DNA of 64,000 nt from Patescibacteria group bacterium (GTDB lineage Bacteria > Patescibacteriota > Microgenomatia > Levybacterales > UBA12049), in contig JBBTTO010000002.1 in the NCBI GenBank assembly GCA_038064195.1, positions 466,387-530,386 of the forward strand, read 5' to 3'. The notes below the pieces were generated by a model, which worked only from the letters and a program-made list of their open reading frames with translations, did no database searches and was not told where the DNA came from. Position numbers and translations under genes: made by a program. Below, piece after piece: positions 552 to 54,427 of this stretch; the stretch's first letter is position 1, and each line of letters starts with the position of its first letter.

Positions 552-1306
552 CTTCACAGAAAATAACCGCGATTGTTCTGGCTAAAAATGAAGAGGACAT
601 GATTGGGGATTGTCTGGAATCCCTCGGGTTTGTGGATGAGATCATTGTTGTCGATAATGATTCCACAGATGATACTGTCGAGATTGCTCGAAAAAAAGGA
701 GCAAAAATCATATCCAGTTCTTCTACCAGCTTTTCTGAGCGACGTGAGATCGGGCTTAAAAAAGTGAAAGCTGGATTTGTTCTCTACCTTGACGCAGACG
801 AACGGATCACACCAGATCTTCAGTTAGAGATTCAAAAAGCCGCTTTCGCTGATTCACCGGTTAGTGCTTACAGGATTCCCCGCCAAAACTTCTATTTGGG
901 GAAGCATCCTTGGCCTGTTATTGAGCGCCATCTCAGATTTTTTCGTAGGGATGGAATCAGAGGCTGGGAGGGGGAGTTACACGAGACAGCCAAAGTTAAA
1001 GGTGACATAGCTGACTTTGTTTCTCCGATGCTCCATTTCACTCATCGTGATTTTTCCTCTATGGTTGAAAAGACTAATAGTTGGTCTGAAAAAGAAGCGG
1101 AATTGCGTATGATCGCTCATCATCCTAAGATTACCTGGTGGCGTTTCCCTCGGGTCATGCTTGCAGCATTTTATCATTCCTACATCACTGAGAAAGGGTG
1201 GAAAGTAGGGACTGCTGGGTTACTTGAAAGTATGTTCCAGGCCTTTAGTATTTTTATTACCTATGCTAAATTATGGGAACTTCAACAAAGAAAACATCGC
1301 GAATAG
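548..1306 (+). CDS. Small GT2 (GT-A) glycosyltransferase, WaaE/KdtX-like
   Basis: N-terminal AIVLAKNEEDMIGDCLESL...EIIVVDNDSTDDT is the GT2 nucleotide-sugar binding region, followed by DADE. Clear paralog of 15496..16272. ATGA overlap with the upstream gene. Confidence 0.8.
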   Translation: MTSQKITAIVLAKNEEDMIGDCLESLGFVDEIIVVDNDSTDDTVEIARKKGAKIISSSSTSFSERREIGLKKVKAGFVLYLDADERITPDLQLEIQKAAFADSPVSAYRIPRQNFYLGKHPWPVIERHLRFFRRDGIRGWEGELHETAKVKGDIADFVSPMLHFTHRDFSSMVEKTNSWSEKEAELRMIAHHPKITWWRFPRVMLAAFYHSYITEKGWKVGTAGLLESMFQAFSIFITYAKLWELQQRKHRE

Positions 1307-2943
1307 GACAATTCCTGAGTTTACCTAAAAAAAAGCTGTATCTCTACGCGCTTATCTTTATTTTTCTCACCGGTTTTATCCTGCGCACTTATCATCTCGA
1401 CTCTCTTCCTCCTAGCCTCAATCGTGATGAAGTTGCGCTTGGCTATAACGCCTATTCAATTCTAACGACAGGTAGGGATGAGCACGGTAAATTTCTGCCG
1501 TTGTCTCTGGAGTCATTCGGGGACTGGAAGTTATCCGGCTATCCGTTTACTGATATTCCATTTATCGCATTTTTTGGACTCAATGAATTTGCAGTCAGAC
1601 TACCGAGTGCCCTAGCAGGGTCACTGTCTGTAATACTTATCTATCTCATTGCCGGATTTATTTTTAAGAAAAAAGCAATAAGCCTTCTTGCTTCATTTTT
1701 TTTCGCTCTCTCGCCATGGAATATATTCTTCTCTCGTGCAGCATATGAGGTGAATCTGGGATTATCTTTCTTTTTAACGGGATTGGTATTCTTACTTTGG
1801 TATGGAGAGTCAAAGAAAAAGACATGGAAATTGTTCGTATCCGGCGTATTTTTTATTCTTCCTCTTTTTACTTATCATGCCTTTATTTTGTTTACACCGT
1901 TATTTATTTTTCCATTACTTTACCTTTATAGAAAGGAAATCTCTTTAAAATCAAGTGTAATTTTTGGCATAACCGTATTTATTTTCTGTGTTTTAGGCTA
2001 TGTGAATATCTCAGTTAGTGGCCTTAACAAAATATCGACACTTTCTGTTTTTTCAAATAAAGATATCATTTACGATCGTGCGGAGAAATTACGGGGGGAT
2101 GGTTCAGTTGATAATCTCTTTATAGCACATATTCTCTACAACAAATATTTTGCCGGCTCTTACCAGATAGCCCAAAATTACGTCTCTACTTTTTCGCCTG
2201 CATTTCTTTTTGACAAAGGGGGAGAAAAAACAGTCCACAATTTAGGCTACTTTGGCAATCTCTATATTTTTGACGTGATACTTCTCTGTGCGGGATTGTT
2301 TTTCCTTATCTCTCGAAGAGATCCGGCATTAGCAATTATCGGTCTTTGGTTGCTTGTAGCTCCTCTCCCTTCAGCTTTGACTTTGGATCCGCAGAACTCG
2401 ACCAGGTTTTATCCTATCCTGCCTGCATTTATTTTCCTCAGTAGTTACGGTGCATATTATCTGTACGTTTTGCTGACACAAAATCGCTTAAGGTCAATAC
2501 TGCTTGTTGGTTTAACAGGGCTATTTCTTTTTAATGTGTTGTTATTTATGGATGGTTATTTTGTCCATATGAGTATTCAACGTGCAAGGTTCTGGGATTA
2601 TGGATATAAGCAAAGTGTCCAGCTTTCACAGCAGTATCCGACATTTCAGGCGGTGATGCGGGGGCCGGAGAATTTTCCATATATATATTTTCTTTTTTAC
2701 AATAAATATGACTCACAACGTTTCAGAAAAGAAGTTAGTTATTATCCGCCAACAAAAGAGGGCTTCTTATATGTTAAGAGCTTTGGTAAGTTTTCTTTCC
2801 CGCCGACTATTAATTACAGTGATTTACATTCAAGGACTCTCTACATTGATAATTATGTTCAGCGTAATTCGACCGATCACCCGATCCATACCATAAATCT
2901 CCCTTCCAATGAGCCGATCTTTATTTATGAAATCAAGCAATAA
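1273..2943 (+). CDS. Polytopic GT-C glycosyltransferase of the PMT/ArnT (GT39/GT83) family
   Basis: About 12 predicted hydrophobic helices. The first extracytoplasmic loop carries RDEVALGYNAYSILTTGRDEHGKFLP, a DE-containing motif characteristic of the PMT/ArnT family and shared with 10535 and 12213. Confidence 0.7.
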   Translation: MGTSTKKTSRIGQFLSLPKKKLYLYALIFIFLTGFILRTYHLDSLPPSLNRDEVALGYNAYSILTTGRDEHGKFLPLSLESFGDWKLSGYPFTDIPFIAFFGLNEFAVRLPSALAGSLSVILIYLIAGFIFKKKAISLLASFFFALSPWNIFFSRAAYEVNLGLSFFLTGLVFLLWYGESKKKTWKLFVSGVFFILPLFTYHAFILFTPLFIFPLLYLYRKEISLKSSVIFGITVFIFCVLGYVNISVSGLNKISTLSVFSNKDIIYDRAEKLRGDGSVDNLFIAHILYNKYFAGSYQIAQNYVSTFSPAFLFDKGGEKTVHNLGYFGNLYIFDVILLCAGLFFLISRRDPALAIIGLWLLVAPLPSALTLDPQNSTRFYPILPAFIFLSSYGAYYLYVLLTQNRLRSILLVGLTGLFLFNVLLFMDGYFVHMSIQRARFWDYGYKQSVQLSQQYPTFQAVMRGPENFPYIYFLFYNKYDSQRFRKEVSYYPPTKEGFLYVKSFGKFSFPPTINYSDLHSRTLYIDNYVQRNSTDHPIHTINLPSNEPIFIYEIKQ

Positions 2944-5203
2944 AAATACGAGCTGGTTTATAAAGAGTGTTATAAAGTATTTGCCGTTAGGTTTTATTAT
3001 TTTTGTTTGGTTCGCTTTCTCCAGTCCATATTTTCTGAGACACTCCGTTCCTTTTCCCACCAGGCAACTCGTCACGTTTTTTGCTCCCTGGAATCAGTAT
3101 GATAAATATGCAGGCCCTGTTAAAAATAATGCCATGCCGGATGTTGTTACGCAGATTTACCCCTGGAAGCATTTTGTCGTTAGTGAGCTTAAGGAGGGTA
3201 GAATGCCTCTATGGAATCCCAATAATTTCTCAGGTAACCCGGCACTCGCAAATTTCCAGACAGCTGTCTTTTCACCTTTTACGCTTTTATATTTTATTTT
3301 GCCTTTTATTGATGCATGGAGTTTGACAGTTCTTCTTCAACCGTTACTTGCAGGGATTTTTACGTATTTTTTGACACGTGAGATGAGAGTGAGTCGGGGA
3401 GGAGCTGTTGTCAGTGCATTAGGATTTATGTTTTCAGGCTTTATCGTCGTTTGGATGGCATACGGAACTCTCTCTATGGCCGTTGCTTTTTTGCCGCTTA
3501 TTCTTCTTAGTCTTGAAAAGTTTTTACGGAAAAATAAGATACGTTTTCTTATCCCGGCCGCACTAGCTGTGACTGTCTCTCTTTTTTCAGGTCATTTTCA
3601 GACCAGTTTGTATGTTCTCATTACATCATTTGTCTTTATTGTCTATCGCTATGCCACTGACAGAAGATTTAAAAGAATGATGATTGCCTGCTTCGCGTTA
3701 CTGAGCGGATGTGTCCTGGCCCTCCCACAACTTATTCCGACATTTGTTCTGTATACGCAATCATTTCGCAGCAGTAACGCTATCGTTGATGGGGGAATTC
3801 CGCTTTACTACCTTATAACTTCCTTCGCTCCGGATTTTTTTGGGAGCCCTGTCACGCGCAATGACTGGGTGGGGTTTTATGCCGAGCGAGCAAGTTTTAT
3901 AGGGATCATCCCTCTTCTCCTAGCAGGCTTTTCATTCTTTCGCATACGCTCTCACTATGTCCTCTTCTTTATCGGTTTGAGTCTTGTCAGTTTGGTCTTA
4001 GCACTTGATACTCCCTTACAAGTGCTTCTAAGTATGGCAGGCATTCCGGTTCTCTCCAGTAGTAATCCTACCCGGATTATTGTTTTATGGAGCTTTGCGA
4101 TGAGCATTTTGGCCGGATTTGGCTATGATTATCTCGGGGAGGTAATTTCTAAAAAAATATTTCGTCATATTCTCTATGTTGTTGTTACCGTTATTGCGAT
4201 CGTCATGTTAGCTTGGTTATCAGTCAGTGTTTTCCGTCTTTTACCCGCTGATAAAGTACATATTGCCGAGCGAAATCTTATTATTCCGACATTGATTCTT
4301 ACGCTGGGAATTTTTGCTATCTTCCTCCAGTTTTTTAACAAACGAATTCGAAAGCAGTCTTTTTTCTTATGGCTCATTATTCTCCTCATAGCCCTTGATA
4401 GTTTTCGTTTTGCCTGGAAATGGATGCCTTTTGACTCAACAGCTATTCTTTTTCCCGATGTTCCGGTGATCTCTGCCATGCAAAAATTGCAGGGTACAGG
4501 TCGGGTCTTCGGCGGCTTTGGCACGGAAGTCCAGACCTATTATGGGGTACGCTCAGTTGAAGGGTACGATCCGTTATATATCAAAAGATACGGAGAATTC
4601 ATCAAAGCTGCCACCACGGGTAGATACACAGTCCCTGATCGTTCTTTTGTAGGAGTTGACAGACAGGCAAAGTCGACTGAAAAGGTGTTGAATTTCCTGT
4701 CAGTCTCTCTTCTTTTTCAGCCGAAGTCACAACTCTTTGTTAATTATGCCTATCCTGTCTGGGGTCGGCCCGATATCTATAAAGTAGTCTACGAGGATGA
4801 TCTATTTCTGCTCTATCACAATAAGACTATGCTGCCTTTTGCCAGACTTTCCTATGTATATGAAGTTTTTACTGATCCCAAGAAGTTATTAGCCCGTTTT
4901 TATGACCCTGATTTTTCATACCAGACGACGACGCTACTTGAGGAGAATCCTTCCTTCCCAGATATGATCCAAAAGGATGCGACCGGATCTGCAGAGATTG
5001 TATCTATGAAACCAACGCGGATAAGTATTAAGGTAAATTCTACCTCCCCTGGCCTATTATTTCTCCCCACACCCTATTACCCCAACTGGCATGCGACAGT
5101 AAACGGAGAAGCTACTCAGATATATCAGGCGGACTATGCTTTTCAAGCCATAAAAATACCGAAAGGAAAATCAGATGTTATTTTTTCTTACTCTTATTTT
5201 TGA
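2909..5203 (+). CDS. YfhO-family polytopic membrane protein (GT-C-like, lipid-linked sugar dependent glycosylation)
   Basis: 764 aa. Contains PLWNPNNFSGNPALANFQTAVFSPF, a YfhO signature. Multi-TM N-terminal two-thirds plus a large C-terminal extracytoplasmic domain. Paralog of 6561..8795. Confidence 0.65.
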   Translation: MSRSLFMKSSNKNTSWFIKSVIKYLPLGFIIFVWFAFSSPYFLRHSVPFPTRQLVTFFAPWNQYDKYAGPVKNNAMPDVVTQIYPWKHFVVSELKEGRMPLWNPNNFSGNPALANFQTAVFSPFTLLYFILPFIDAWSLTVLLQPLLAGIFTYFLTREMRVSRGGAVVSALGFMFSGFIVVWMAYGTLSMAVAFLPLILLSLEKFLRKNKIRFLIPAALAVTVSLFSGHFQTSLYVLITSFVFIVYRYATDRRFKRMMIACFALLSGCVLALPQLIPTFVLYTQSFRSSNAIVDGGIPLYYLITSFAPDFFGSPVTRNDWVGFYAERASFIGIIPLLLAGFSFFRIRSHYVLFFIGLSLVSLVLALDTPLQVLLSMAGIPVLSSSNPTRIIVLWSFAMSILAGFGYDYLGEVISKKIFRHILYVVVTVIAIVMLAWLSVSVFRLLPADKVHIAERNLIIPTLILTLGIFAIFLQFFNKRIRKQSFFLWLIILLIALDSFRFAWKWMPFDSTAILFPDVPVISAMQKLQGTGRVFGGFGTEVQTYYGVRSVEGYDPLYIKRYGEFIKAATTGRYTVPDRSFVGVDRQAKSTEKVLNFLSVSLLFQPKSQLFVNYAYPVWGRPDIYKVVYEDDLFLLYHNKTMLPFARLSYVYEVFTDPKKLLARFYDPDFSYQTTTLLEENPSFPDMIQKDATGSAEIVSMKPTRISIKVNSTSPGLLFLPTPYYPNWHATVNGEATQIYQADYAFQAIKIPKGKSDVIFSYSYF

Positions 5204-5439
5204 GGACGCCTAAGGAGCTTTTTCCAGGATTTTATCTCGCCGATTGTTAGTGGGTTTTTGGCGAATTTGAAGAGATAGACCAGTTCTAAAATACCGAAAG
5301 TATTTATTACAAGTAGTACCACAAACCAGATTTTCTGCTCATTATGTGCAGTCCGCCAAAGCGCGATACCTTTCCAGATCAGAGACCAGAGTCCGATTAT
5401 ATAAAACCAGATGGGATAATTTATGCCTATCATAGGCAT
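5194..5439 (-). CDS. Hypothetical small two-helix membrane protein
   Basis: 81-aa ORF with two hydrophobic helices (PIWFYIIGLWSLIW and FVVLLVINTFGILELVYLF). It lies in the only sizeable non-coding gap of the island, with the opposite orientation to all its neighbours. Confidence 0.35.
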   Translation of the reverse strand: MPMIGINYPIWFYIIGLWSLIWKGIALWRTAHNEQKIWFVVLLVINTFGILELVYLFKFAKNPLTIGEIKSWKKLLRRPQK

Positions 5440-5487
5440 ATCGTAACATAGATACTCAACGATTGCAAAACTTGCTACAATTAAGGG

Positions 5488-6564
5488 ATGAAGATCGGAA
5501 TCTATGATCCGTACCTCGATACACTCTCAGGCGGGGAGAAGTATATGCTCTCAATTGCTTTGTGTTTGCAGGATGACCACGAGGTAGTGATTTTTTGGGA
5601 TAAAGCAAAAGAGCAGGAGATCCGTTCCAAAGCTAAAGAAAGGTTCGGTTTTGATCTTGAAAAGATTGCGTTTGCACCATCACTCTTTTCTAAAAGTGTT
5701 AGCTTTTTGACTCGCTACAACAAAAGTAAAGACTACGATCTCCTGTTCTATCTCAGTGACGGGAGCCTGCCCGTAGTTGCCTGCGACCTTATCGTCCATT
5801 TCCAGTCTCCTATGCTTTGGCTTAAAGGGCGTTCGCTTAAAAATCGTTTGAAGATGAGACGGATTAAAACTGTCATTTGTAATTCAAACTTCACCAAATC
5901 CTATGTAGATAAGATCTTCGGGATTGAAAGTAAGATCGTGTATCCGCCTGTCTCGATTCAAGGACGCTATCAACCCACCAAAAAAGAGCGGATCATCCTT
6001 AACGCCGGACGCTTCGGCATCAACTGGGCCGGTTCGAGTTTTAAGAAGCAGGATATTTTGGCCGAAGCTTTTGCCAGGCTTTATACCGAGGGGCTCAAAG
6101 GTTGGAAGCTGGTTTTTGTTATGAATGTTAAAGATGACGCGTTGTCGGCAGTTGACGATCTCAAAAATAAGTATAAAGATACACCTATCGAATTCGTTCT
6201 CAATCCTAACAATCGCGATCTGTGGAAGTGGTATGAGAAAGCTACGTTTTATTGGCACGCGGCGGGTTTTGCTGAGGACGTAACGACTCATCCGGATCGG
6301 GCCGAACACTTCGGCATGACGACAGTTGAAGCAATGGGAGTCGGTGCTGTTCCGCTTGTAGTTGGTGCCGGCGGACAAAAAGAGATAGTTGAGGATCAAA
6401 AGAACGGAAGACTCTGGAATACAATTGATGAATTAATAAGGTTCACTAAGGAGCTTATTCTAGACGATAAAAAGAGAGAGCTTCTCGTTCAGGAGGCAGT
6501 TAAATCATCAGATAGCTACTCCCTCGAGAGTTTCAATAAAAGTATTAAAGACCTTATTACATGA
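5488..6564 (+). CDS. GT4 (GT-B) glycosyltransferase
   Basis: C-terminal EHFGMTTVEAMGVGAVPLV is the E-X7-E motif of retaining GT4 enzymes. Confidence 0.85.
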   Translation: MKIGIYDPYLDTLSGGEKYMLSIALCLQDDHEVVIFWDKAKEQEIRSKAKERFGFDLEKIAFAPSLFSKSVSFLTRYNKSKDYDLLFYLSDGSLPVVACDLIVHFQSPMLWLKGRSLKNRLKMRRIKTVICNSNFTKSYVDKIFGIESKIVYPPVSIQGRYQPTKKERIILNAGRFGINWAGSSFKKQDILAEAFARLYTEGLKGWKLVFVMNVKDDALSAVDDLKNKYKDTPIEFVLNPNNRDLWKWYEKATFYWHAAGFAEDVTTHPDRAEHFGMTTVEAMGVGAVPLVVGAGGQKEIVEDQKNGRLWNTIDELIRFTKELILDDKKRELLVQEAVKSSDSYSLESFNKSIKDLIT

Positions 6565-8795
6565 ACAAAAAAGATCTTTTGAGTCTGGGCCTAGTACTTT
6601 TTGCCATTCTTCTTTTTTTTCGCGGTTTTTTTATTCAGGGAAGAGTTCCTATCCCGACAGATACGTTAGTAAATTTATTCCATCCTTTCAGAGATTATTA
6701 TGCTAAAGACTATCCCAGGGGAATTCCTTATAAGAACTTTTTGCTTGCTGATCCGGTGACTCAGCAAATCCCCTGGAAATCCCTGTCGATATCTCAGATG
6801 AGTAGGGGGCAGCTGCCGCTTTGGAACCCGTATCAGATGGCAGGCTATCCTCTGCTTGCTAATATCCAGTCTTCCCCCTTTTATCCGTTAAATATTTTGC
6901 TTTTTATAAGTCCGTTTATTTTAAGTTGGTCGGTTTTTATCTTACTTCAGCAAATTCTGGCGGCCTTCTTTATGTATTTGTTTCTGCGGAATCTAAAACT
7001 CGAAAGGTTGTCAGCAAGTCTTGGTTCGTTGAGTTTCGCATTTTGCGGATTTTTTATTGCCTGGTTGGAATGGGGGACTATTGTGCATACTGCTCTTTGG
7101 CTGCCGCTTATTTTACTCTGTGTTGATAAAATCCTTTCTGATAAAAGATATCGCTGGAGCGGAATTTTTATTTTTGCTGTCTTGTCTTCATTCCTGGCAG
7201 GACACTTGCAGACTTTTATTTATACGTGCGGTGTTACATCTTTATACTTTTTATATAGGTTTGTTGAGAGTAGATATAACCGACAATTTTTTTCCCGTTT
7301 TGTACTTTCGGGTTTGGCAGTGATTCTTATAAGTTTGCCGATTCTTGTTCCTCAGCTTCAGCTAATTTCCCTTTCAGCTCGGAATATCGATCAAAGCTGG
7401 CAGCAGGCGGGGTGGTTTATTCCTGTTTCTCAGGCGATTCAATTTATCGCGCCTGACTTTTTTGGCAATCCTGCTACTGGTAATTATTTCGGGGTCTGGA
7501 ACTACGGCGAATTCATCGGTTACATCGGCATTTTCCCTCTTCTGCTTGCTTTCTATGCACTTTTACGTCGTAAAAGTAATGATACCTATTTTTGGGCAGC
7601 ACTCGCAGCTATGAGTGTCTTACTTGCATTTCAGACACCGCTTGCCAAGCTTCCATATGAGTTGGGAATACCGTTTTTTTCCTCTACCCAGCCTACACGC
7701 TTGATTTTTGTGGCTGATTTTGCTTTATCAGTTCTGGCTGCGTTCGGACTTGAGAGATTACTCAAAACAAAAAGCAAAGTATTTCTTCCGCAAATTATTA
7801 TCATCTTATTTTTGCTATTTGGAGTAGGTTATGGCTTTATGCAGCTGCAAACTCGACAGATTTCAGTTACGAATTGGCAGGTCACTACACACAACCTGAT
7901 TCTGCCTCTATTTCTTGTGACAGTTGCCTGTGGCGGATTGTTCGTCAGTTCTCTTCTGGCTACGAAAAAAAGAACAGTCGTTGTAGCTTTTATGTTTGTT
8001 ATGACGATAGGTGATTTGCTTATTTTTGCCGGTAAATTTACTCCTTTTGCCAACTCCTCATATTTTTATCCGACAACCAAAGCAATAGCTTTTCTTAAAG
8101 AGCAGCCGGGTCAATTCAGAATTATGACGACTGATCGTCGAATCCTTCATCCCAATATTGCCACTCAGTATCGCCTCCAGAGTATAGATGGCTACGATCC
8201 TCTCTATCTTCTTAAGTATGGTGAAATGATGGCCGCCGTCGGAAGAGGAAAGCCCGATATTATCCCACCCTTCGGCTATTTCCGTATCCTAACCCCCGGG
8301 AGTTTTGACTCACCCCTTATTGACCTTTTAGGAGTGCGGTATATTCTGAGTCTGACAGAGATTCACAGTCCGCACGTAAAGCAGGTTTATTCAGAGGGAG
8401 AGACCAGAGTATATGAGAACGCCAGAGCGTTTCCGCGGGCATTTTTTGTAACGTCTGTCAGCCCGGCAGCCAATAATCAACAGGCAATCAATTTTCTCTT
8501 CAACTCCGCAGTTGATTTACATACAATAGCCATAGTTGAGGCCGGGGAATCAGAGTTGCCTACTCAATTTTCCCCTGGGAAAGTCACGATTGATTCCTAT
8601 ACTGAGAACAGTATCACTCTGACAGCACGCACTGACGGGAAAGCGTTTATGGTTTTGACCGATACTTTCTATCCGACCTGGAAGGCAACCGTTGACGGAA
8701 AGCCGACTGTTGTATACCGGACAGACTATAATTTCAGAGGCGTTGTTGTACCGGGAGGGGAACATAGGATAGTATTTAAAGATACACTTTTTTAA
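6561..8795 (+). CDS. YfhO-family polytopic membrane protein, paralog of 2909..5203
   Basis: 744 aa. LPLWNPYQMAGYPLLANIQSSPFYPL aligns with the motif in 2909..5203. Same architecture. ATGA overlap with the upstream GT4. Confidence 0.65.
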   Translation: MNKKDLLSLGLVLFAILLFFRGFFIQGRVPIPTDTLVNLFHPFRDYYAKDYPRGIPYKNFLLADPVTQQIPWKSLSISQMSRGQLPLWNPYQMAGYPLLANIQSSPFYPLNILLFISPFILSWSVFILLQQILAAFFMYLFLRNLKLERLSASLGSLSFAFCGFFIAWLEWGTIVHTALWLPLILLCVDKILSDKRYRWSGIFIFAVLSSFLAGHLQTFIYTCGVTSLYFLYRFVESRYNRQFFSRFVLSGLAVILISLPILVPQLQLISLSARNIDQSWQQAGWFIPVSQAIQFIAPDFFGNPATGNYFGVWNYGEFIGYIGIFPLLLAFYALLRRKSNDTYFWAALAAMSVLLAFQTPLAKLPYELGIPFFSSTQPTRLIFVADFALSVLAAFGLERLLKTKSKVFLPQIIIILFLLFGVGYGFMQLQTRQISVTNWQVTTHNLILPLFLVTVACGGLFVSSLLATKKRTVVVAFMFVMTIGDLLIFAGKFTPFANSSYFYPTTKAIAFLKEQPGQFRIMTTDRRILHPNIATQYRLQSIDGYDPLYLLKYGEMMAAVGRGKPDIIPPFGYFRILTPGSFDSPLIDLLGVRYILSLTEIHSPHVKQVYSEGETRVYENARAFPRAFFVTSVSPAANNQQAINFLFNSAVDLHTIAIVEAGESELPTQFSPGKVTIDSYTENSITLTARTDGKAFMVLTDTFYPTWKATVDGKPTVVYRTDYNFRGVVVPGGEHRIVFKDTLF

Positions 8796-8796
8796 C

Positions 8797-9753
8797 ATGA
8801 CAATAAGTATTGTTATTCCCGATTACAATAATGGTGATTTAATTGCCGAAAATCTGCCTTTGTATATCCCTATTCTGCAAACCTTTGCCAAAGCTCACAA
8901 AACATCCGTACAGATTATCATTAATGACGACGGTTCGACAGACGGGAGTTGGGAACGGTTAGTAAAAGCTACTGAGAAGAAATATGAGCTTGTTGATTTC
9001 ACCCTGCTCAGTAACGGTCGCAATATCGGTTTTTCGACCACTGTCAATCGCGGCGTTGCTCGTGCCCGGGGCGAGATAGTAGTACTCCTGAATGCTGATG
9101 TTGTTCCTGATAAAGGTTTTTTGGAACCTCTGCTTGATCATTTTTCAGATCGAGATGTGTTTGCCGTAGGCTGTATGGATAAGAGTATTGAAGCAGACGG
9201 GACTACCGTTCTTCGCGGGCGGGGGGTAGGTAAATGGGTGAGAGGCTTTCTTCTCCATTCCCGTGGAGAGCCTGACAGGCAGGATACGCTTTGGGTGAGT
9301 GGAGGAAGCGGAGCTTTTCGTAAAAGTATTTGGGACAAATTAGGAGGGCTCAACGAAATGATGAACAGATTTTACTGGGAAGATATTGATCTGTCTTACA
9401 GAGCCCAAAAAGCCGGTTATAAAGTGTTATTTGAGCCCAAAAGTACCGTTGTTCATGAACATGAAGAGGGTTCAATCAAAAAAACAGCCAAACCCATGAG
9501 TGTGAGGATCACCTCATATCGTAATCAATTTTACTTTGTCTGGGTTAACATCACGGATTTCTCCTTTATCATGTCTCATCTTTTCTGGCTGCCCCTCCAG
9601 CTCGCTCTCGCAACACTTCATGGCGATACTGCTTTTCTTAAGGGTTTTTTGCTAGCCCTTTTTCATGTTCCGCAAGTGCTTATCAGGCGTCAAAAAGTTC
9701 AGTCACTGACAAAAATTTCAGATCACAGTATCCTCGCTCATTTTAGCGCGTGA
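8797..9753 (+). CDS. GT2 glycosyltransferase with C-terminal hydrophobic segment
   Basis: ISIVIPDYNNGDLI...IINDDGSTDGS, LLNADVVPD and FYWEDIDLSYRAQKAGY are GT-A motifs. C-terminal FSFIMSHLFWLPLQLALATL is a hydrophobic helix. Confidence 0.8.
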   Translation: MTISIVIPDYNNGDLIAENLPLYIPILQTFAKAHKTSVQIIINDDGSTDGSWERLVKATEKKYELVDFTLLSNGRNIGFSTTVNRGVARARGEIVVLLNADVVPDKGFLEPLLDHFSDRDVFAVGCMDKSIEADGTTVLRGRGVGKWVRGFLLHSRGEPDRQDTLWVSGGSGAFRKSIWDKLGGLNEMMNRFYWEDIDLSYRAQKAGYKVLFEPKSTVVHEHEEGSIKKTAKPMSVRITSYRNQFYFVWVNITDFSFIMSHLFWLPLQLALATLHGDTAFLKGFLLALFHVPQVLIRRQKVQSLTKISDHSILAHFSA

Positions 9754-9790
9754 TTTGCTCAACAGCGGTTATAGTTTTTATCTAAAAATC

Positions 9791-9799
9791 TGGTATCAT
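9791..9799 (+). promoter_or_regulatory. Extended −10 element TGGTATCAT, 10 nt upstream of the 9810 ATG (near-leaderless)
   Basis: TGnTATCAT in a 56-nt AT-rich gap. No Shine-Dalgarno sequence is seen. Confidence 0.35.
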
Positions 9800-9809
9800 A
9801 TACATTATT

Positions 9810-10526
9810 ATGAAATTATCAATTATTGTACCGGTCTATAATGAAGAAAAAACGATTAAAGCAGTACTCGAAAGACTAAGCCGGCTTGATTTGGGTAAAA
9901 CCAAAAAAGAAATTATCATCATCAATGACGCCTCATCTGATCTTACCGATAAAGAAATAAAAAAAGTTCTGCCTAAAAATCCTGACTTTGTCTACATCAC
10001 GCATGACGTCAACAAAGGCAAAGGGGCTGCTGTTAATACCGGGATTGCTACATCCAAAGGAGACTATATCATCATTCAGGATGCCGATTTGGAATATGAT
10101 CCGGGGGATATTCCCCGGCTCCTTGAGCCTATTCTTGACGGCCGTGCGAGAGTAGTTTTCGGAACTCGCTTGAAAAGACTCCCCAACTTCAGTCGGGACG
10201 AACGAAATATGCGTTTTTTTATTCAGTATATGGGTAACAAAGGTCTGAGTTTATTGACGAGTATTCTTTACGGGCAGTGGATCACCGACATGGAGACCTG
10301 TTACAAGCTTTTTCCTAAAGACAGTCTAAAAGGCAAAAAAATTCATGCAAAAGGATTTGAATTTGAACCCGAAATTACAGCGCTGCTTATAAAGAGTGGC
10401 TATAAGATCACCGAGCTGCCGATTTCGACTAATCCCCGGGGGTTTGAGGAGGGCAAAAAACTTCGCCCTGTTCATGACGGAGTTAAAGCCTTTATTGCAC
10501 TTTTGAAATTTCGTTTTAAAAATTAA
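9810..10526 (+). CDS. Polyprenol-phosphate sugar synthase, DPM1/Ppm1-like GT2 (soluble, no C-terminal TM)
   Basis: [14 protein letters not shown]...IIINDASSD and [11 protein letters not shown] motifs match dolichol/polyprenol-phosphate mannose synthase-type GT2. It sits directly upstream of two PMT/ArnT-like GT-C genes. Confidence 0.7.
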
Positions 10527-10534
10527 TTTGTATT

Positions 10535-12211
10535 GTGTACAGGCTGATCGATATAATGAAAAAAGCTATTAGGAAGGAATCCCTTCTTTTACTCCTGATT
10601 ATCTCGATTGCGACAGTGCTGCGTTTCTGGCATTTGGGGATTAATCCACCGTCGCTGACCTGGGATGAAGTTGCCTGGGGTTACAATGCGTACTCAATCG
10701 GTATTGACGGCAAAGATGAATTCGGCCGCTTTTTGCCCTACGACTATTTAGAGTCATTCGGGGATTTCAAGCCTCCGCTTTATGCCTATCTGGATGTCCT
10801 CCCGGTAAAAGTTTTCGGACTTAACGAGTTTGCTACCCGCTTCCCATCAAGTCTTTTTGGTGTCCTGAGTGTCCTTGTCACTTATTTTCTGGTTAAGCGT
10901 CTTTTTTACAATTCAAAAAATAAAGAGATGTATGCCTTAGCCGCTACAGGTGTTTTAGCTATCTCTCCCTGGCATATCATGCTCTCGCGTGCTGCGTTTG
11001 AGGCGAATGTGGCATCATTTTTTATAATGACTGGTATCTGGCTATTCTTAGTTGCGGTTGAAGAGCGTCCTTGGCTTCTCCTTCTTAGTGCGATCAGTTT
11101 TGTCTTATCCCTTTATACTTTTAACAGTACACGGATAGTTGCTCCGTTACTTGTGATTTTTCTCGGATTAGTTTTTTACAAAAAATTACTCAACGTTAAA
11201 AAACAGGCAATTGCCGCAGTCATTATCGGACTGTTATTACTGGCTCCGATTCTTGGCTTTCTGCGTTCTCCGCAAGCAGCCTTGCGCTTTCAGGAGGTTA
11301 ATATTTTTACCGACAGCAATATAGTCAAAACTGCCAACAGACAAATTGCCAACGACCATAACGCCTGGTGGTCAAAGATCATTCACAACCGCCGTGTTGG
11401 CTATGCTGAGTCTTTCCTTAAGCATTATTTCGATAATCTCAGCCCAGAATTTTTATTTGTTCACGGCGACGGAAATTTCAAATTTTCAACTCAGAATGTC
11501 GGGCAGCTTTATCTCTGGGAATTACCTTTCTTTATAGCCGGAATTCTTTTCCTGATTAAGAGAAGGGAAGGGTACTGGTGGCTCATCCCTATTTGGCTCC
11601 TTTTAGCGATTATCCCTGCAGCAACGGCTCGTGAGACGCCGCATGCTCTCAGAATTGAGTCATCACTACCTACTTTCCAGATACTGACCGGCTATGGCGC
11701 AAGTCTTTTCCTTTTTTATCTCATATCTTTACCCCGAAAAAAAATAATGCTCAAAAAAGTACTACTCGGAGTTTTTTCTGTTGCAGTTTTGGGTAACATT
11801 ACTTTTTTTCTCCACTCACTTTTTATCCAGTACCCCCGGGAAAGTTCGGGTGAATGGCAGTATGGATATAAGGATGCAATTGCTTATGCCAAATCGGTTG
11901 AGGGGGATTATGATCAGATACGTCTGACCGATGAGTTAGGTCGTCCGTATATATATACGCTTTTTTATCTCAGGATTACACCTCAGGAGTTTCGTTCTAC
12001 ACAACTGGTGACACGGGATAGCTTTGGTTTTGTCCATGTTAACGGCTTTGCTAAGTACCGCTTCGGAAGTGATGAAATCAACAGGAATCCTGAGGAAGGT
12101 AAAAGGACTCTTATTATTGAGATCCCGCGAAAGGTTCCAAGTGGCGTTCGAATTCTTAAGGAATTCCCGTTGTTAAATGGAGATACGGCACTTGAGGCCT
12201 ATACATTTTAA
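10535..12211 (+). CDS. Polytopic GT-C glycosyltransferase, PMT/ArnT (GT39/GT83) family
   Basis: WDEVAWGYNAYSIGIDGKDEFGRFLP motif. Multi-TM. Paralog of 1273 and 12213. The true start could be the second ATG at 10556. Confidence 0.7.
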   Translation: MYRLIDIMKKAIRKESLLLLLIISIATVLRFWHLGINPPSLTWDEVAWGYNAYSIGIDGKDEFGRFLPYDYLESFGDFKPPLYAYLDVLPVKVFGLNEFATRFPSSLFGVLSVLVTYFLVKRLFYNSKNKEMYALAATGVLAISPWHIMLSRAAFEANVASFFIMTGIWLFLVAVEERPWLLLLSAISFVLSLYTFNSTRIVAPLLVIFLGLVFYKKLLNVKKQAIAAVIIGLLLLAPILGFLRSPQAALRFQEVNIFTDSNIVKTANRQIANDHNAWWSKIIHNRRVGYAESFLKHYFDNLSPEFLFVHGDGNFKFSTQNVGQLYLWELPFFIAGILFLIKRREGYWWLIPIWLLLAIIPAATARETPHALRIESSLPTFQILTGYGASLFLFYLISLPRKKIMLKKVLLGVFSVAVLGNITFFLHSLFIQYPRESSGEWQYGYKDAIAYAKSVEGDYDQIRLTDELGRPYIYTLFYLRITPQEFRSTQLVTRDSFGFVHVNGFAKYRFGSDEINRNPEEGKRTLIIEIPRKVPSGVRILKEFPLLNGDTALEAYTF

Positions 12212-12212
12212 T

Positions 12213-13877
12213 ATGCTTAGAAGATATCGACTACTTTTTCTGATCGGGATTATATTTTTTGCAGCTGTTTTACGGTTATACCAGCTGGGAGTTACTCCCG
12301 TGTCGCCTGATTGGGATGAGGTGGCACTCGGATACAACGCTTACTCAATTATCCAGACAGGCAAAGACGAGTACGGAGCCTTTTTGCCGGTCGTTCTCAG
12401 GTCTTACGATGATTACAAGCCTGCACTCTATACCTATCTTGCCATTCCTCCGATTTTCGTCTTTGGCTTGACTGTGTTTGCTACCCGGTTGCCCAGTGCT
12501 ATTTTTGGTATTCTGACGATATTTATCACCTATCTTTTGATCCGAGAGGTATTTAAAAAAGAAAGTTTGGCTCTTATTACGAGTTTTCTGTTGGCGATAT
12601 CTCCCTGGCACATCCAGTTCTCTCGTGTTGCTTTTGAGACCAATATCGGTCTGTCACTGAATATCTTGACTGCCTATTTATTTGTTAAGGGTCTAAAAAA
12701 GCCGTGGGTACTTATACTGAGTGCTTTTTCTGCAGGACTGGCAATTTATGCGTACCAGAGTGAAAAAGTTTTTACTCCGTTGTTTGTTCTGGTACTCGTA
12801 CTTATTTTTGCCCGTCAGCTTTTCAGTTTGCCTAAAAAATACCTGCTGACAGCTGCTATTACCGGAATACTGGTTGTAACACCGATGTTTGTTTATATTA
12901 CTTCTCACAAAGAAGCGCTTCTCAGGGCTCAAGCCACACTTGCTTTCTCAGATCAGACGAGCTTTCTCAAAAACCAGATCAAGCGTGTTAATTATGATCA
13001 CCTCCGTAAAGATTATCTGGGGCTTGTTCTTGATAATCGACGCGTTCTTTTTCTTTTGACAGGGGTGGGGGGCTATCTCTCTCATTATGATCTCAACTGG
13101 CTATTTTTTAAAGGCGATTTGACCAGACATCATGCACCGGGTATGGGGCTGATGTATCTCTGGGAGCTCCCGTTTTTGCTTATCGGTCTCTATGCATTGT
13201 TTTTTTCCAGGCTCGAATCCAAGGAGAAGAGAGGGAAGTATCTTTTCTTTGCCTGGTTTTTGTTGGCCCCTGTCCCCGCAGCTTTTACCAGTGACCTTCC
13301 GCATGCGGTCAGGACTCTGAACTTCCTTCCGACATTTCAACTCTTTACTGCCTGGGGTATTTTATCTGCAGTACAAATGATCAGGGTATATAAAGAAAGA
13401 AAAGGGACTATATTTTCAAAATTATTCCCCGTTTTTGTTCTTTGCTTTTTGTTCTTTGCGGTTGGCAACTTTGCTTATTATCTTAATCAATATTTTGTGC
13501 AGCAAAATTATTTTTATTCGAGAGATTGGCAATACGGCTACGCTGATACGGTTGACTATATCAAGAAAGTTGATGCTGATTATGACAAAATTGTCGTGAG
13601 TAATAAGCAGCCACTTGATGATTCGTATATGTTCTTTTTATTTTATCTCAAATATCCGCCCGAAAAATATCAACGTGAGTCTCTTTCCAAATCAGGCGGA
13701 TATGATATACGACATAGCTTCGGTAAATTTGAATTCCGGCCTGTGCACTGGGATACAGAAGTAAAAAAGGATACTATTTTGTATGTTGAAGGAGTTTCTG
13801 AGTATGGGGGAGGAAATATAGTCAAACCGGTTGATTTCCTTGACGGCACTCCGGCCATCAAAATAGTACAAGGATGA
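12213..13877 (+). CDS. Polytopic GT-C glycosyltransferase, PMT/ArnT family, tandem paralog
   Basis: WDEVALGYNAYSIIQTGKDEYGAFLP motif. I placed the start at the first ATG, 1 nt after the upstream stop; the ORF-track TTG extension at 12177 overlaps the upstream gene. Confidence 0.7.
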   Translation: MLRRYRLLFLIGIIFFAAVLRLYQLGVTPVSPDWDEVALGYNAYSIIQTGKDEYGAFLPVVLRSYDDYKPALYTYLAIPPIFVFGLTVFATRLPSAIFGILTIFITYLLIREVFKKESLALITSFLLAISPWHIQFSRVAFETNIGLSLNILTAYLFVKGLKKPWVLILSAFSAGLAIYAYQSEKVFTPLFVLVLVLIFARQLFSLPKKYLLTAAITGILVVTPMFVYITSHKEALLRAQATLAFSDQTSFLKNQIKRVNYDHLRKDYLGLVLDNRRVLFLLTGVGGYLSHYDLNWLFFKGDLTRHHAPGMGLMYLWELPFLLIGLYALFFSRLESKEKRGKYLFFAWFLLAPVPAAFTSDLPHAVRTLNFLPTFQLFTAWGILSAVQMIRVYKERKGTIFSKLFPVFVLCFLFFAVGNFAYYLNQYFVQQNYFYSRDWQYGYADTVDYIKKVDADYDKIVVSNKQPLDDSYMFFLFYLKYPPEKYQRESLSKSGGYDIRHSFGKFEFRPVHWDTEVKKDTILYVEGVSEYGGGNIVKPVDFLDGTPAIKIVQG

Positions 13878-15514
13878 AAAAAAACGTCTGGCTCATTGCT
13901 CTTATTCTTTTGTCTCTCCTGCCGCTTTTCCCGTTAATTCATCCCGGGCTGCCGGTTACTCATGACGGGAAAGATCATGTAGCGCGTATTGCCAACTTTT
14001 TTCAAAATCTGCAGGAGGGAGTTCTGATACCTCGTTGGGCTGGCAATCTCAACTGGGGATACGGGCACCCTGTGCTGATGTTTTTGTATCCGCTTCCCTC
14101 ATATATTGCCTCATTTTTTAGAGTACTCGGATTTTCTTTCATTGATAGTACCAAGCTCGTTTTTGCAAGCTCGTATGTCCTCAGCGGTATCACGATGTAT
14201 ATCTGGCTTAAAAGCTTTCTTAGGCGGGAGTCAGCTTTTCTGGGGAGTATACTTTATCTGTTTGCATCATATCGTTTTATTGATCTCTACGTCAGAGGTG
14301 CACTTGGTGAACATGTTGCTTTCATATTTCCGCCACTCATTTGTTATTTCCTTTATCACATGACCACAAAGCGTATGAGCAAATACGCTCTTTTTGCCGG
14401 CATCTCAATAGCCGGACTGATTTTGGCGCATGATGCGATCAGTATTATCTTTTTACCCTTTATTGTTATCTATGCGTGTTTTTTGGTCTTTTTACAAAAT
14501 AAAAAAAAGAAAGCAGCTATTGAGGCTGCATCAAGTGTAGTTTTGGGTTTTGTCCTCTCCGGCTTTTTCTGGATACCTGCGTTTTTTGAAGGCAAATACA
14601 CACTTCGTGATATTGTTGCATCTCACGACTTCTCACATTCCTTATTTTCACTTAGCAAATATATTTACAGTCCCTGGAGTTTTGGTATTTCAGGACAGTT
14701 CAGCCTGCAAATCGGTATTATTCAATGGGTGATCGTGTTGCTGACTAGCAGTTTGATGATAATCTATCGGAAGAAAATTCAGAAAAAAGACAGGCTTCTT
14801 TTGTCTGTTCTTATTGTTTTTTTTATTCTTACAGTCGGTATTATGACGCCGGTCTCACAACCGTTCTGGGATCACGTTAGTTTGATTCAAAAATTCCAGT
14901 TCCCCTGGAGATTTCTGTCTCTTGCCGTTTTTATAACAAGTGTGATCGCAGCTGTTGCATCAAATCTTCTTCCGGACAAATTCAGGAAAGCTACCGTTAT
15001 ACTTGCTGTAATTTCGGTAATGGTGACGATTCCTTATTGGAAGGTGAACGGTTATTATATGCGGCCCGACAGTTTTTTTTCAGGAATTTATGCCGGGACA
15101 ACCGATACGGGTGAAAGCTCGCCACGATGGTCGGTTCGCTTCATGGAGCAACAACCTCAAAGCCATCTTGAGTTTATCAGCGGTAAAGGCAGGATTGAAG
15201 AACGAGAACATATGTCGACTTTTCATCATTACACGGTTGAGGCAGGAACTCAGGTGCAACTACGTGAAAACACGGTTTATTTTCCCGGCTGGAGAGTTTT
15301 GCTTAACAACTCACCCTTTCCTGTCGAGTTTCAAGACACACATAATAGAGGTGTTATGACTTTCACCATACCGGCAGGGAAGCATGATGTAGTAGTTGCT
15401 TTTGCTGAAACAAAGCTGCGCTTCCTGGCAGATGCTATCAGTCTTTTTGGATTGCTCATCCTGGCTATCTCATTTATACTAATGAGGACCACATTATGGA
15501 AACGATTTCAGTAG
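13874..15514 (+). CDS. Polytopic membrane protein, YfhO/PTPS-related-like putative GT-C
   Basis: N-terminal loop THDGKDHVARIANF has an HD..H..R pattern that I recall from YfhO/PTPS-related membrane proteins. About 12 helices plus a C-terminal soluble domain. Family assignment is tentative. Confidence 0.45.
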   Translation: MKKNVWLIALILLSLLPLFPLIHPGLPVTHDGKDHVARIANFFQNLQEGVLIPRWAGNLNWGYGHPVLMFLYPLPSYIASFFRVLGFSFIDSTKLVFASSYVLSGITMYIWLKSFLRRESAFLGSILYLFASYRFIDLYVRGALGEHVAFIFPPLICYFLYHMTTKRMSKYALFAGISIAGLILAHDAISIIFLPFIVIYACFLVFLQNKKKKAAIEAASSVVLGFVLSGFFWIPAFFEGKYTLRDIVASHDFSHSLFSLSKYIYSPWSFGISGQFSLQIGIIQWVIVLLTSSLMIIYRKKIQKKDRLLLSVLIVFFILTVGIMTPVSQPFWDHVSLIQKFQFPWRFLSLAVFITSVIAAVASNLLPDKFRKATVILAVISVMVTIPYWKVNGYYMRPDSFFSGIYAGTTDTGESSPRWSVRFMEQQPQSHLEFISGKGRIEEREHMSTFHHYTVEAGTQVQLRENTVYFPGWRVLLNNSPFPVEFQDTHNRGVMTFTIPAGKHDVVVAFAETKLRFLADAISLFGLLILAISFILMRTTLWKRFQ

Positions 15515-16272
15515 TCCTTGCGACATTTAATGAAGAAAAGAATTTAGCTGCTTGTCTTGAGTCTGTCAAAGATTTAGCTCAGGAGATTATCATCGTTGAC
15601 GGTACGTCAAAAGACAGGACAGTTGAAATAGCAAAAAGTTTTGGAGCTAAAGTCTTAGTCACCACCAATCCGCCTATTTTTCATATTAATAAGCAAAAAG
15701 CCATCGATATGGCCACCAAGGACTGGGTCCTGCAGCTTGATGCCGATGAGCGGGTTAGTCCGGAGCTTGCAAAAGAAATAAGGGAAGTTATCTCCAAAGA
15801 TCCACCATCCAAGACCGACGAACCAATTAATGGGTACTGGTTACCCCGCAAGAATTTTTTCCTCGGGCGCTTCCTCATGAAAGGCGGACAATATCCTGAC
15901 TATACCCTCAGGCTCTATCGCAAGGGCACAGGCCGCCTCCCACAGAAAGATGTTCATGAACAAGCTAGAGTTGAGGGCAAGGTAGGATATCTGACTCATC
16001 CGCTTACCCATATTGCAGATCCTGAGTTCGGGAGGTATCTGATGCGTTTTAAGAGATACACTAATTTACTGGCAGATGAATACGTGGATAAAAAAATCGG
16101 CAAAAATCCCTATACATTTAGCAAATATATGCTGGTAATGCCAACTTACTGGTTCATTCTTCAATACGGAAGGCATAAGGGATTTATGGATTCGTGGCAG
16201 GGCTTTGTTTTCTCACTTTTCTCCTCCCTTCGTTTTCCTGTCAGCTATCTTAAGTATTTGGGGAGGAAATAA
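15496..16272 (+). CDS. Small GT2 glycosyltransferase, paralog of 548..1306
   Basis: ISVVLATFNEEKNLAACLESV...IIIVDGTSKDRT and LDADER motifs. Aligns along its length with 548..1306. Confidence 0.8.
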   Translation: METISVVLATFNEEKNLAACLESVKDLAQEIIIVDGTSKDRTVEIAKSFGAKVLVTTNPPIFHINKQKAIDMATKDWVLQLDADERVSPELAKEIREVISKDPPSKTDEPINGYWLPRKNFFLGRFLMKGGQYPDYTLRLYRKGTGRLPQKDVHEQARVEGKVGYLTHPLTHIADPEFGRYLMRFKRYTNLLADEYVDKKIGKNPYTFSKYMLVMPTYWFILQYGRHKGFMDSWQGFVFSLFSSLRFPVSYLKYLGRK

Positions 16273-21510: not shown

Positions 21511-21517
21511 TAACAAA

Positions 21518-34709: not shown

Positions 34710-34799
34710 CAATACTGTATAGTATATGATATAGCCTGCTTTAATAATAGAGAGAAGTTGTAGCATTCTCTTCTTATCATATTTATGGTATAGGTATGT

Positions 34800-54373: not shown

Positions 54374-54391
54374 TAATTTTCTTCTGTCAAG

Positions 54392-54421
54392 TTGACAAAG
54401 GCTAAAGCTCTCTCGTATCAT
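54392..54421 (+). promoter_or_regulatory. Candidate promoter TTGACA-N18-TATCAT, ending 6 nt before the ATG at 54428
   Basis: Perfect −35 hexamer. The ORF-track TTG start coincides with the −35 box, so the true start is more likely the ATG at 54428 (leaderless). Confidence 0.4.
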
Positions 54422-54427
54422 TGTCAT

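Follow-up and report, generated by a model that had tools for sequence, protein, structure and literature searches.

Mycobacteria and corynebacteria carry arrays of glycosyltransferases of the C fold (GT-C; Emb, Aft, MptA/B and PimE), which assemble lipoglycans and arabinogalactan on the outer side of the membrane, act stepwise on one polymer and take their sugars from polyprenyl-phosphate-sugar donors. In multi-component systems, a lipid-sugar synthase of the A fold (GT-A) is paired with a flippase and a GT-C transferase (PMC8035078), and the Pgf system of Streptococcus mutans glycosylates surface proteins outside the cell (PMC12041528). The catalytic acidic pair of ArnT (D55/E56) and of Pmt1 (D77/E78) is located in the first outward-facing loop (EL1) (PMC7801869). 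Bacteria of the candidate phyla radiation (CPR) have no outer membrane and a monoderm-like envelope (PMC6744442). Here we describe a 64,000-nucleotide stretch from a Patescibacteria group bacterium (assembly GCA_038064195.1, contig JBBTTO010000002.1, positions 466,387 to 530,386 of the forward strand; hereafter the window), which encodes four paralogous GT-C proteins, A to D, of the PMT/PMT_2 families. The source is a Levybacteria-like member of the Microgenomates (CPR). It is very probable that these proteins are outward-facing, lipid-phosphate-sugar-dependent transferases and ancient paralogs. By Pfam they are PMT/PMT_2 members, and by curated or structural tests they are not ArnT, Agl23 or oligosaccharyltransferase (OST) proteins.

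Three of the genes are encoded on the plus strand: A (556 amino acids (aa), positions 1273–2943) and the tandem of B (558 aa, 10535–12211) and C (554 aa, 12213–13877). The distant paralog D (578 aa, 57004–58740) is encoded on the minus strand, outside the glycan cluster, where it adjoins recO and a glycyl-tRNA synthetase gene. A and B were assigned with Pfam and blastp, C with Pfam and an AlphaFold2 (AF2) model, and D with Pfam, blastp and the family alignment. An earlier note on this DNA had listed these four open reading frames (ORFs) and a fifth, E (47778–49217), and all five are present. The A gene starts within the end of an upstream family 2 glycosyltransferase (GT2) gene (548–1306). The start of C is ambiguous between ATG 12177, TTG 12192, which is implied by a 561-aa database gene call, and ATG 12213, one base past the TAA stop of B. 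The start that gives D 578 aa agrees with its orthologs, most of which have 560–584 aa and many exactly 578 aa.

A, B and C score 36.9–37.8 bits against Pfam PMT (PF02366; cut-off 22.7) and 37.3–48.2 bits against Pfam PMT_2 (PF13231; cut-off 26.1), and D scores 39.2 bits against PMT_2, which is also above the cut-off of 26.1. In blastp, the three plus-strand proteins align over their full length, with 33% identity between A and B (E 4e-74), 31% between A and C (E 1e-63) and 36% between B and C (E 2e-101), while D matches A, B and C with 25–28% identity over ~400 aa (E 1e-13 to 1e-15). The assignment of A to E to one GT-C superfamily by the earlier note thus stands, with Pfam PMT/PMT_2 scores above the cut-offs and E as a remote relative, and the pairwise alignments leave no room for the reading that the resemblance is a compositional artefact.

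The first loop carries the motif RDEVALGYNAYS in A (residues 51–62; nucleotides (nt) 1423–1458, plus strand), WDEVAWGYNAYS in B (residues 43–54; nt 10661–10696, plus strand) and WDEVALGYNAYS in C (residues 34–45; nt 12312–12347, plus strand), for which the consensus is WDE[VA]A.GYNAYS. The version in D, NDELQYVLNARS (residues 37–48; nt 58597–58632, minus strand), is distant and retains the DE, so that the acidic pair at the start of EL1 reads DE in A to D. In a 269-sequence family alignment, D35 is found in 265/265 non-gap rows and E36 in 262/265. The shared first-loop motif of A, B and C, as the earlier note had described it, is near-invariant across this alignment; because the Asp is invariant and the Glu nearly so, it is a family hallmark and not a chance match. 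Further motifs are SPWNIFFSR (nt 1711–1737) and FWDYGY (nt 2590–2607) in A, GDGNFKFSTQ in loop EL4 of B, and GDLTRHHAP (loop EL4, nt 13113–13139) and DWQYGY (nt 13524–13541) in C. D carries NPWFVYIGR and has no W.YG motif.

To place the paralogs among their relatives, one genome per GTDB species was scanned, which gave at least 590 confirmed matches; the 80 best-matching loci were taken further in a comparison that spans 81 related loci, copies were counted locally (±10 kb flanks around the C ortholog), and a simple neighbour-joining (NJ) tree, which carries no support values, was computed. Levybacteria, Gottesmanbacteria, Woesebacteria, Roizmanbacteria and Shapirobacteria are among the sources of these 80 loci. 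A copy of C with 100% identity is present in public assemblies, and orthologs of C form more than 100 clusters at 53–66% identity, of which the named ones are Patescibacteria or Levybacteria. Additional family members are found in every one of the best 80 loci. All 48 loci with full 10-kb flanks hold two to six members (median 3) within 21.6 kb, so the relatives are not poorer in copies. In the Levybacteria genome GCA_016182185, for example, the orthologs of B (56% identity) and C (55%) lie in the same order and are joined by three more motif-bearing copies, which gives five within 11 kb. The copy number in the window, which had been thought unusual and possibly higher than in orthologous genomes, is ordinary for the lineage, since relatives carry as many copies or more.

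In the NJ tree A, B, C and D fall into separate clades. For the B clade, 77 loci contribute exactly one member each (41–77% identity); 118 sequences from 79 loci make up the C clade; A is joined in its clade by 41 others from 32 loci (25–53% identity); and D groups with its own ortholog series from Levybacteria and Gottesmanbacteria (33–52% identity). No conserved genomic context was found for D, whose neighbours are unrelated at two ortholog loci. In 73 of 79 loci, a gap of less than 200 bp separates the end of a B-type gene from the C ortholog downstream of it, and a recurrent gene order is GT4 (family 4 glycosyltransferase), YfhO, GT2, DPM1-like GT2, (A), B, C, PTPS_related, GT2, epimerase, GT4. 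The tree, identity and synteny comparisons indicate that the duplications are old and precede the split of these candidate phyla. Judged by these comparisons, A, B, C and D appear to be ancient, separately conserved paralogs of a Microgenomates-wide GT-C subfamily. A search with the family profile yielded 5,445 representatives (50%-identity clusters) at E ≤1e-30. The family is a very large GT-C subfamily that is found mainly in CPR bacteria and has motifs and a C-terminal domain of its own; it is no new kind of system.

C is the one full-length paralog that was modelled (AF2 pLDDT 86.5, pTM 0.88). In a Foldseek search with this model, all 21 matches at E ≤1e-3 are GT-C proteins, nearly all with TM-scores of 0.42–0.53. 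The PDB matches comprise STT3, AglB, PglB, ArnT, Pmt4, ALG9 and Emb (E 8e-8 to 2e-3, TM ~0.5), and EmbC, AftD, AftA, AftB and PimE are matched more weakly. A GT-C class A fold is therefore found for the modelled member and is predicted for the A–D family. C as a single query gave no match in a sequence search of the PDB, and the family profile has a sole match there, ArnT (5ezm, E 0.017). ArnT, the undecaprenyl-phosphate-L-Ara4N:lipid A transferase of family GT83, also has the best TM-score to the C model (0.53) and, as is predicted for the proteins described here, a C-terminal domain on the outer side of the membrane, which is periplasmic in ArnT. However, ArnT has 13 helices compared with ~11 here, and against the ArnT equivalog NF009784 of NCBIfam A scores 23 bits (cut-off 567) and B and C have no match. 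In ArnT, E84, H265 and H267 are the Zn ligands. CPR bacteria are not known to have lipid A, and they lack an outer membrane (PMC6744442).

The topology of C was predicted from the AF2 helices combined with hydrophobicity. It has ~11 membrane helices, a cytoplasmic N-terminus and an external C-terminal domain of ~125 aa, and places the DE pair at the start of the first outward-facing loop. The same plan is predicted for the other paralogs. This topology fits the excess of lysine and arginine in the predicted cytoplasmic short loops (16 of 64 residues), compared with 3 of 50 in the outward-facing short loops. By analogy, the family DE pair would occupy the EL1 position of ArnT D55/E56 and Pmt1 D77/E78, an equivalence at the level of position (PMC7801869).

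Fifty-eight positions reach at least 90% conservation in the B clade and in the C clade alike; 46 of them are predicted to face outward, in loops or in the C-terminal domain, while 12 fall in membrane helices and none in cytoplasmic loops. They include W-D-E, G-Y, A-Y, D-E-x-G and D-x-K-P in EL1; S-P-W and S-R in EL2; N-R-R and G-D in EL4; P-H in EL5, plus the Arg that opens the next helix; and W-Q-Y-G-Y in the C-terminal domain. Another 17 positions discriminate B from C. Fifteen of these lie in predicted outward-facing segments, and ten in EL4, a loop that accounts for only 86 of the 554 residues. Right after the shared G-D of EL4, the C clade has R-H-H-x-P and the B clade K-F-S-x-Q. The comparison of periplasmic loops that the earlier note had called for thus locates most of the difference between B and C in EL4, a long loop that is predicted to face outward. 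The pattern suggests different specificities for B and C, which are probably set by the discriminating positions of EL4, and to this extent the divergence of the paralogs points to the diversified specificities that had been proposed.

The outward-facing C-terminal domain spans residues 430–554 of C (nt 13500–13874) and has equivalents in A and B. Modelled alone, it reaches an AF2 pLDDT of 85. It contains the motifs W-Q/D-Y-G-Y and F-L-F-Y-x-K-Y-x-P. The W.YG motif (C residues 439–442) is located ~10 residues past the last membrane helix and reads FWDYGY in A; its W is kept in 195, its Y in 198 and its G in 210 of the 269 aligned sequences. A profile of the domain found nothing better than E 1.4 among PDB sequences, and its model found nothing better than E 0.09 (TM 0.29) among PDB folds, where no AglB or PglB domain was matched.

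Two GT2 genes of the window encode candidate donor synthases. A soluble DPM1/AglJ-like GT2 (238 aa, 9810–10526, plus strand) lies directly upstream of B–C. Its residues 1–216 match dolichol-P-mannose synthase (PDB 5mlz, E 1.8e-15), its NCBIfam score for AglJ is 116.6 bits (cut-off 325), and weaker similarity to PgfS, ArnC and PpgS is present. Forty-five related loci hold a match of at least 40% identity, in most cases next to B on its upstream side. This protein is a candidate polyprenyl-phosphate-hexose synthase that may supply the donor. An ArnC/GtrB/PgfS-like membrane GT2 (311 aa, 40598–41533, plus strand), a further likeness to ArnT with its ArnC partner, is encoded directly after a DUF2079 gene and has full-length PDB matches to ArnC (9hwj, E 2e-44) and GtrB (5ekp, E 6e-36); its NCBIfam scores of 177.8 bits (ArnC) and 159.7 bits (PgfS) are each below the cut-off. 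It is a candidate undecaprenyl-phosphate-sugar synthase. A Wzx-like protein (Polysacc_synt, 433 aa, 21485–22786, plus strand; Pfam 38 bits) is the only flippase candidate in the window.

These components can be arranged in a pathway. The cytoplasmic GT2s (9810–10526 and 40598–41533) would transfer monosaccharides from nucleotide sugars to polyprenyl phosphate, the lipid-linked sugar would be flipped to the outer membrane face, and each GT-C paralog would transfer the sugar to a different position on an envelope glycopolymer or glycoconjugate. The polymer itself would be built by the Wzx, Wzy and phosphoglycosyl-transferase genes of the same ~56-kb locus, and B and C would most likely carry out two successive or complementary steps. 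The chances are about even that this picture, a multi-component transmembrane glycosylation of an envelope polymer by ancient GT-C paralogs with distinct specificities, holds as a whole. As to the acceptor, we give an even chance to a glycopolymer of the wall or membrane that the locus itself produces. It is favoured by the Wzx/Wzy/phosphoglycosyl-transferase context, by the presence of several GT-C families and by the GT87 and MptA_B-family genes that lie beside the paralogs in related Levybacteria loci. With these GT87/MptA_B relatives, the polysaccharide locus recalls the stepwise assembly of mycobacterial lipoglycans, and the weaker Foldseek matches named above point the same way. It differs from the mycobacterial and corynebacterial arrays in that no sequence-level membership was found here and that the genome is much smaller.

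Several observations weigh against the glycopolymer pathway. The acceptor could equally be a protein, because the PMT match is as good as the PMT_2 match. The lipid-phosphate acceptor of the GT2s is deduced from similarity, since none of them reaches a curated NCBIfam cut-off, and the topology map comes from one AF2 secondary-structure read-out together with charge counts. No GtrA-type flippase gene is found in the window, which has no unassigned coding space for one. In addition, D may serve another pathway, given its place outside the cluster and the lack of a conserved neighbourhood.

The first of these points leads to the alternative that survives best, which we nevertheless regard as rather unlikely: A–C may be PMT-like protein O-glycosyltransferases, which would transfer sugar from polyprenyl-phosphate-sugar to Ser/Thr of secreted or surface proteins, with B–C as a Pmt1–Pmt2-like heterodimer. 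Pilins, S-layer proteins or disordered Ser/Thr-rich tails could be the substrates, and the paralogs would be split by substrate or by successive sugars. The resemblance to the PMT proteins (CAZy GT39; yeast Pmt1–Pmt2, actinobacterial Pmt) is considerable. A, B and C are above the Pfam PMT cut-off, the GT-C class A fold is shared, Foldseek matches Pmt4 (E 6e-5) and Pmt1–Pmt2, the DE pair of EL1 matches the PMT-type D77/E78 (PMC7801869), and a DPM1-like donor synthase is encoded next door. The paired paralogs recall Pmt1–Pmt2: B and C co-occur strictly one to one in a tight tandem and keep all shared conserved residues, as expected of two active subunits. However, the family here has ~11 helices and ~555 aa, MIR and PMT_4TMC domains are not detected in it (Pfam, E ≤0.01), and it has instead a ~125-aa outward-facing C-terminal domain that lacks a solved structural relative, as well as motifs of its own (GYNAYS, SPWxIxxSR and WQYGY). 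The genes are located in a Wzx/Wzy-type polysaccharide locus with no obvious substrate protein adjoining, and many GT-C families whose acceptors are not proteins also have a DE/DD pair in EL1 (PMC7801869). A precedent for a protein acceptor is the S. mutans Pgf operon (PgfS, PgfE, PgfM1 and PgfM2), which combines one GT-A, an epimerase and two GT-C proteins (PMC12041528); the conserved block here likewise combines GT2s, the GT-C pair and an epimerase gene (19440–20414). Unlike B and C, which are of the PMT/PMT_2 type, PgfM1 and PgfM2 are of the YfhO type, and the GT2s of the window score well under the PgfS cut-off.

Far less probable is a role of one B–C partner, or of other paralogs, as an Agl23-like helper in the flipping of polyprenyl-phosphate-sugar instead of a transferase. 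Such a role would account for the absence of GtrA from the window, and purified Haloarcula Agl23 translocated lipid-linked oligosaccharide in liposomes (PMC11182771). The best NCBIfam match of A, B, C and E is indeed the flippase-associated archaeal Agl23 family (TIGR03663, E 3e-11 to 9e-7), but its scores of 28–43 bits (28.3 at the lowest) are far under the cut-off of 126.25, and the proteins are hence not members. B and C moreover keep the DE pair and all 58 conserved residues, with their outward-facing concentration, which is expected of catalysis and not of transport. The Wzx-like candidate at 21485–22786 offers another flippase, and GtrA may lie elsewhere in the genome.

We also consider it highly improbable that the family is OST-like (STT3/PglB/AglB) and transfers glycans en bloc, with W-Q/D-Y-G-Y in the role of WWDYG. 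STT3, AglB and PglB are the top Foldseek matches of the full C model (E 8e-8 to 2e-5), and the W.YG motif is common in the family alignment, at its place just after the last helix. Yet ArnT fits the full model equally well (TM 0.53), so the STT3 matches reflect the shared GT-C core. OST membership was rejected: Pfam STT3 is not matched and the C-terminal domain, which has neither a PDB sequence match (best E 1.4) nor a fold match (best E 0.09, TM 0.29), is not of the OST type, which leaves only the resemblance of W-Q/D-Y-G-Y. Finally, a recent expansion specific to the source genome, as suggested by the earlier note, would suit the clustered and co-directional copies, but is ruled out by the NJ tree (one clade per paralog), the identity comparison (31–36% among the paralogs of the window versus 53–66% between C and its orthologs in other genera or phyla-level groups) and the synteny with relatives that have equal or more copies (2–6 in 48 loci; five in GCA_016182185).

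A to D are not the only GT-C proteins of the window. The earlier note had counted five or more members, which are real, but five is too low: at least ten GT-C genes are supported by Pfam, namely six PMT/PMT_2 (A to F), two YfhO, one PTPS_related and one DUF2079 gene, and the total is ~12 once weaker evidence is counted (G and the C-terminal half of the protein encoded at 44705–47788). E (479 aa, plus strand; PMT_2 52.6 bits) is only remotely related to A–D, with a blastp match to A at E 9e-5 and an hhalign match to the A/B/C family profile at 80% probability (E 1.4e-5), and has no acidic pair at the DE column in an alignment with the family. F (532 aa, 17813–19411, plus strand; PMT_2 33.1 bits), which was absent from the list of the earlier note, aligns with DD at this column. 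G (482 aa, 16368–17816, plus strand) is a polytopic membrane protein for which Pfam and NCBIfam scans, relaxed thresholds included, gave nothing. It matches (E 1e-12) a PMT_2 protein of the related locus L004, which itself matches C (3e-8) and F (1e-6), and G may be a diverged GT-C of the PMT_2-like type. When the family profile was compared by hhalign with the single sequences of G and of a 755-aa protein (34800–37067), no match emerged. This protein and another polytopic membrane protein (386 aa, 38005–39165; both plus strand) have no match in relaxed Pfam and NCBIfam scans and may be further divergent glycan-processing enzymes.

The two YfhO-family GT-C proteins (copy 1, 764 aa, 2909–5203, 90.3 bits; copy 2, 744 aa, 6561–8795, 88.2 bits; both plus strand) are 29% identical over their full length. 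Copy 2 belongs to the conserved synteny block and has a match of at least 40% identity in 28 related loci. The gene for a PTPS_related GT-C (546 aa, 13874–15514, plus strand; 51.4 bits) lies directly 3′ of C, a position that is kept in many related loci. The DUF2079 membrane protein (468 aa, 39143–40549, plus strand; 112.5 bits) belongs to a family that we take to be part of the GT-C clan. A 1,027-aa fusion protein (44705–47788, plus strand) has a Wzy_C/O-antigen-ligase-like N-terminal half, which scores 29–31 bits against Wzy_C, slightly below the cut-off of 31.7. Its C-terminal half is a polytopic segment of ~530 aa with an invariant GDDFTWLRW motif; a relaxed Pfam scan of this half was empty, and hhalign against the family profile (probability 62%, E 8e-5) indicates that it is weakly PMT_2-like. 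The ~1,020-aa fusion architecture is found in more than 100 Patescibacteria/Levybacteria clusters (43–68% identity) and may join a ligase or polymerase to a GT-C.

With PMT_2 and YfhO proteins both in the window, the locus resembles the Gram-positive systems Listeria GtlB and B. subtilis CsbB/YfhO, YkcBC and YkoST, in which a GT-A lipid-sugar synthase and a GT-C are encoded together (PMC8035078). It differs from them in density, with at least ten GT-C genes in 57 kb compared with three GT-A/GT-C pairs in the whole B. subtilis genome (PMC8035078), and in its lack of a GtrA flippase gene within the window. Teichoic-acid genes were not recognised among the genes of the window, although no search was aimed at them.

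The remaining genes are consistent with a large glycan cluster. From position 1 to ~56,400, the window is a near-unbroken co-directional array with many GT2 and GT4 genes, Wzx-like, Wzy_C-like and Bac_transf genes, epimerases, an aminotransferase, methyltransferases and an acetyltransferase. Besides the two candidate synthases, plus-strand GT2 genes are found at 548–1306 (252 aa; Pfam Glycos_transf_2 60.3 bits), at 8797–9753 (318 aa), flanked within the conserved block by YfhO copy 2 and the DPM1-like GT2, and at 15496–16272 (258 aa), downstream of the PTPS_related gene. The position of the last is conserved, and it has matches of at least 40% identity in 61 related loci. A mannose-1-phosphate guanylyltransferase-like (GDP-mannose pyrophosphorylase-like) gene (52620–53705, plus strand), which fits the proposed donor supply, precedes the gene for an initiating phosphoglycosyl transferase of the Bac_transf family (221 aa, 53708–54373, plus strand). 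The latter is followed by the gene for a 658-aa membrane-anchored DUF4012 protein, and this pair (53708–56368, plus strand) closes the cluster before recO.

The arrangement around A varies among relatives. In several of them, the equivalent of the GT2 at 548–1306 is followed directly by the GT4/YfhO copy 2 block, and in relatives with an A-type copy in that block, A lies between the DPM1-like GT2 and B. In the window, A and an additional YfhO gene, copy 1 (together 1273–5203), are located between the GT2 at 548–1306 and the GT4, an arrangement that suggests that a GT-C pair was inserted or rearranged long ago. Locus L001, from other samples of the same organism, has A and YfhO copy 1 in this order as well. 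The only minus-strand gene of the first 33 kb (5194–5439) is located in the interval from YfhO copy 1 to the GT4; it is an 81-aa ORF with two predicted membrane helices that is annotated as DUF5652 on an identical contig. Dozens of reference records of metagenome-assembled genomes titled 'uncultured Gammaproteobacteria bacterium' (L008, L009, L013 and others) have a Levybacteria-like gene order and 42–55% identity to C, and their titles look like placeholder or erroneous taxonomy.

The segment from ~22000 to ~40000 has a G+C content of 0.34–0.39, compared with 0.41–0.43 on either side. It holds sugar-modifying genes (an asparagine-synthase-like gene at 26392–28275, two methyltransferase genes, a DegT aminotransferase gene at 30152–31327 and GT2/GT4 genes) and the only large minus-strand gene of the cluster (33516–34805), and the gene order shared with related loci fades out near 24.6 kb. 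Its appearance is that of a serotype-like region, variable and possibly exchanged, within a locus that is otherwise conserved. Further downstream, a 177-aa ORF (41599–42132, plus strand) corresponds only to the N-terminal half of a GT4 (Glyco_transf_4) and shares 27% identity with that half of the complete GT4 encoded next to it (42129–43262); it represents either a remnant left by truncation or part of a split gene.

Literature searches found no description of the B–C pair, the conserved locus or a GT-C expansion in CPR. The use of GT-C enzymes in a monoderm-like bacterium is unsurprising, and what deserves note is the density of GT-C genes and the fixed B–C pair. The GT-C set is a standard part of a large sugar-coat gene cluster shared across the CPR/Microgenomates group, and the analysis provides diagnostic motifs for the subfamily, a conserved pair with its gene order and a short list of EL4 positions. 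The ~56 kb given to envelope glycan genes, with at least ten GT-C, would amount to roughly 5% of a ~1-Mb genome (the complete chromosome of a relative has 995 kb). We tentatively put forward, as a bold and on balance doubtful proposal, that B and C form an obligate two-subunit GT-C machine, either a Pmt1–Pmt2-like heterodimer or a fixed two-step module, which uses the C-terminal domain without a solved structural relative to build a Microgenomates-specific envelope glycoconjugate. If this were true, the ~20-kb block of YfhO, GT2, GT2, B, C, PTPS_related, GT2, epimerase and GT4 would be a signature envelope-biogenesis locus of this superphylum of the CPR, with possible relevance to host attachment by these ultra-small cells. 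The cell-surface chemistry of CPR bacteria probably matters for their attached, host-dependent lifestyle.

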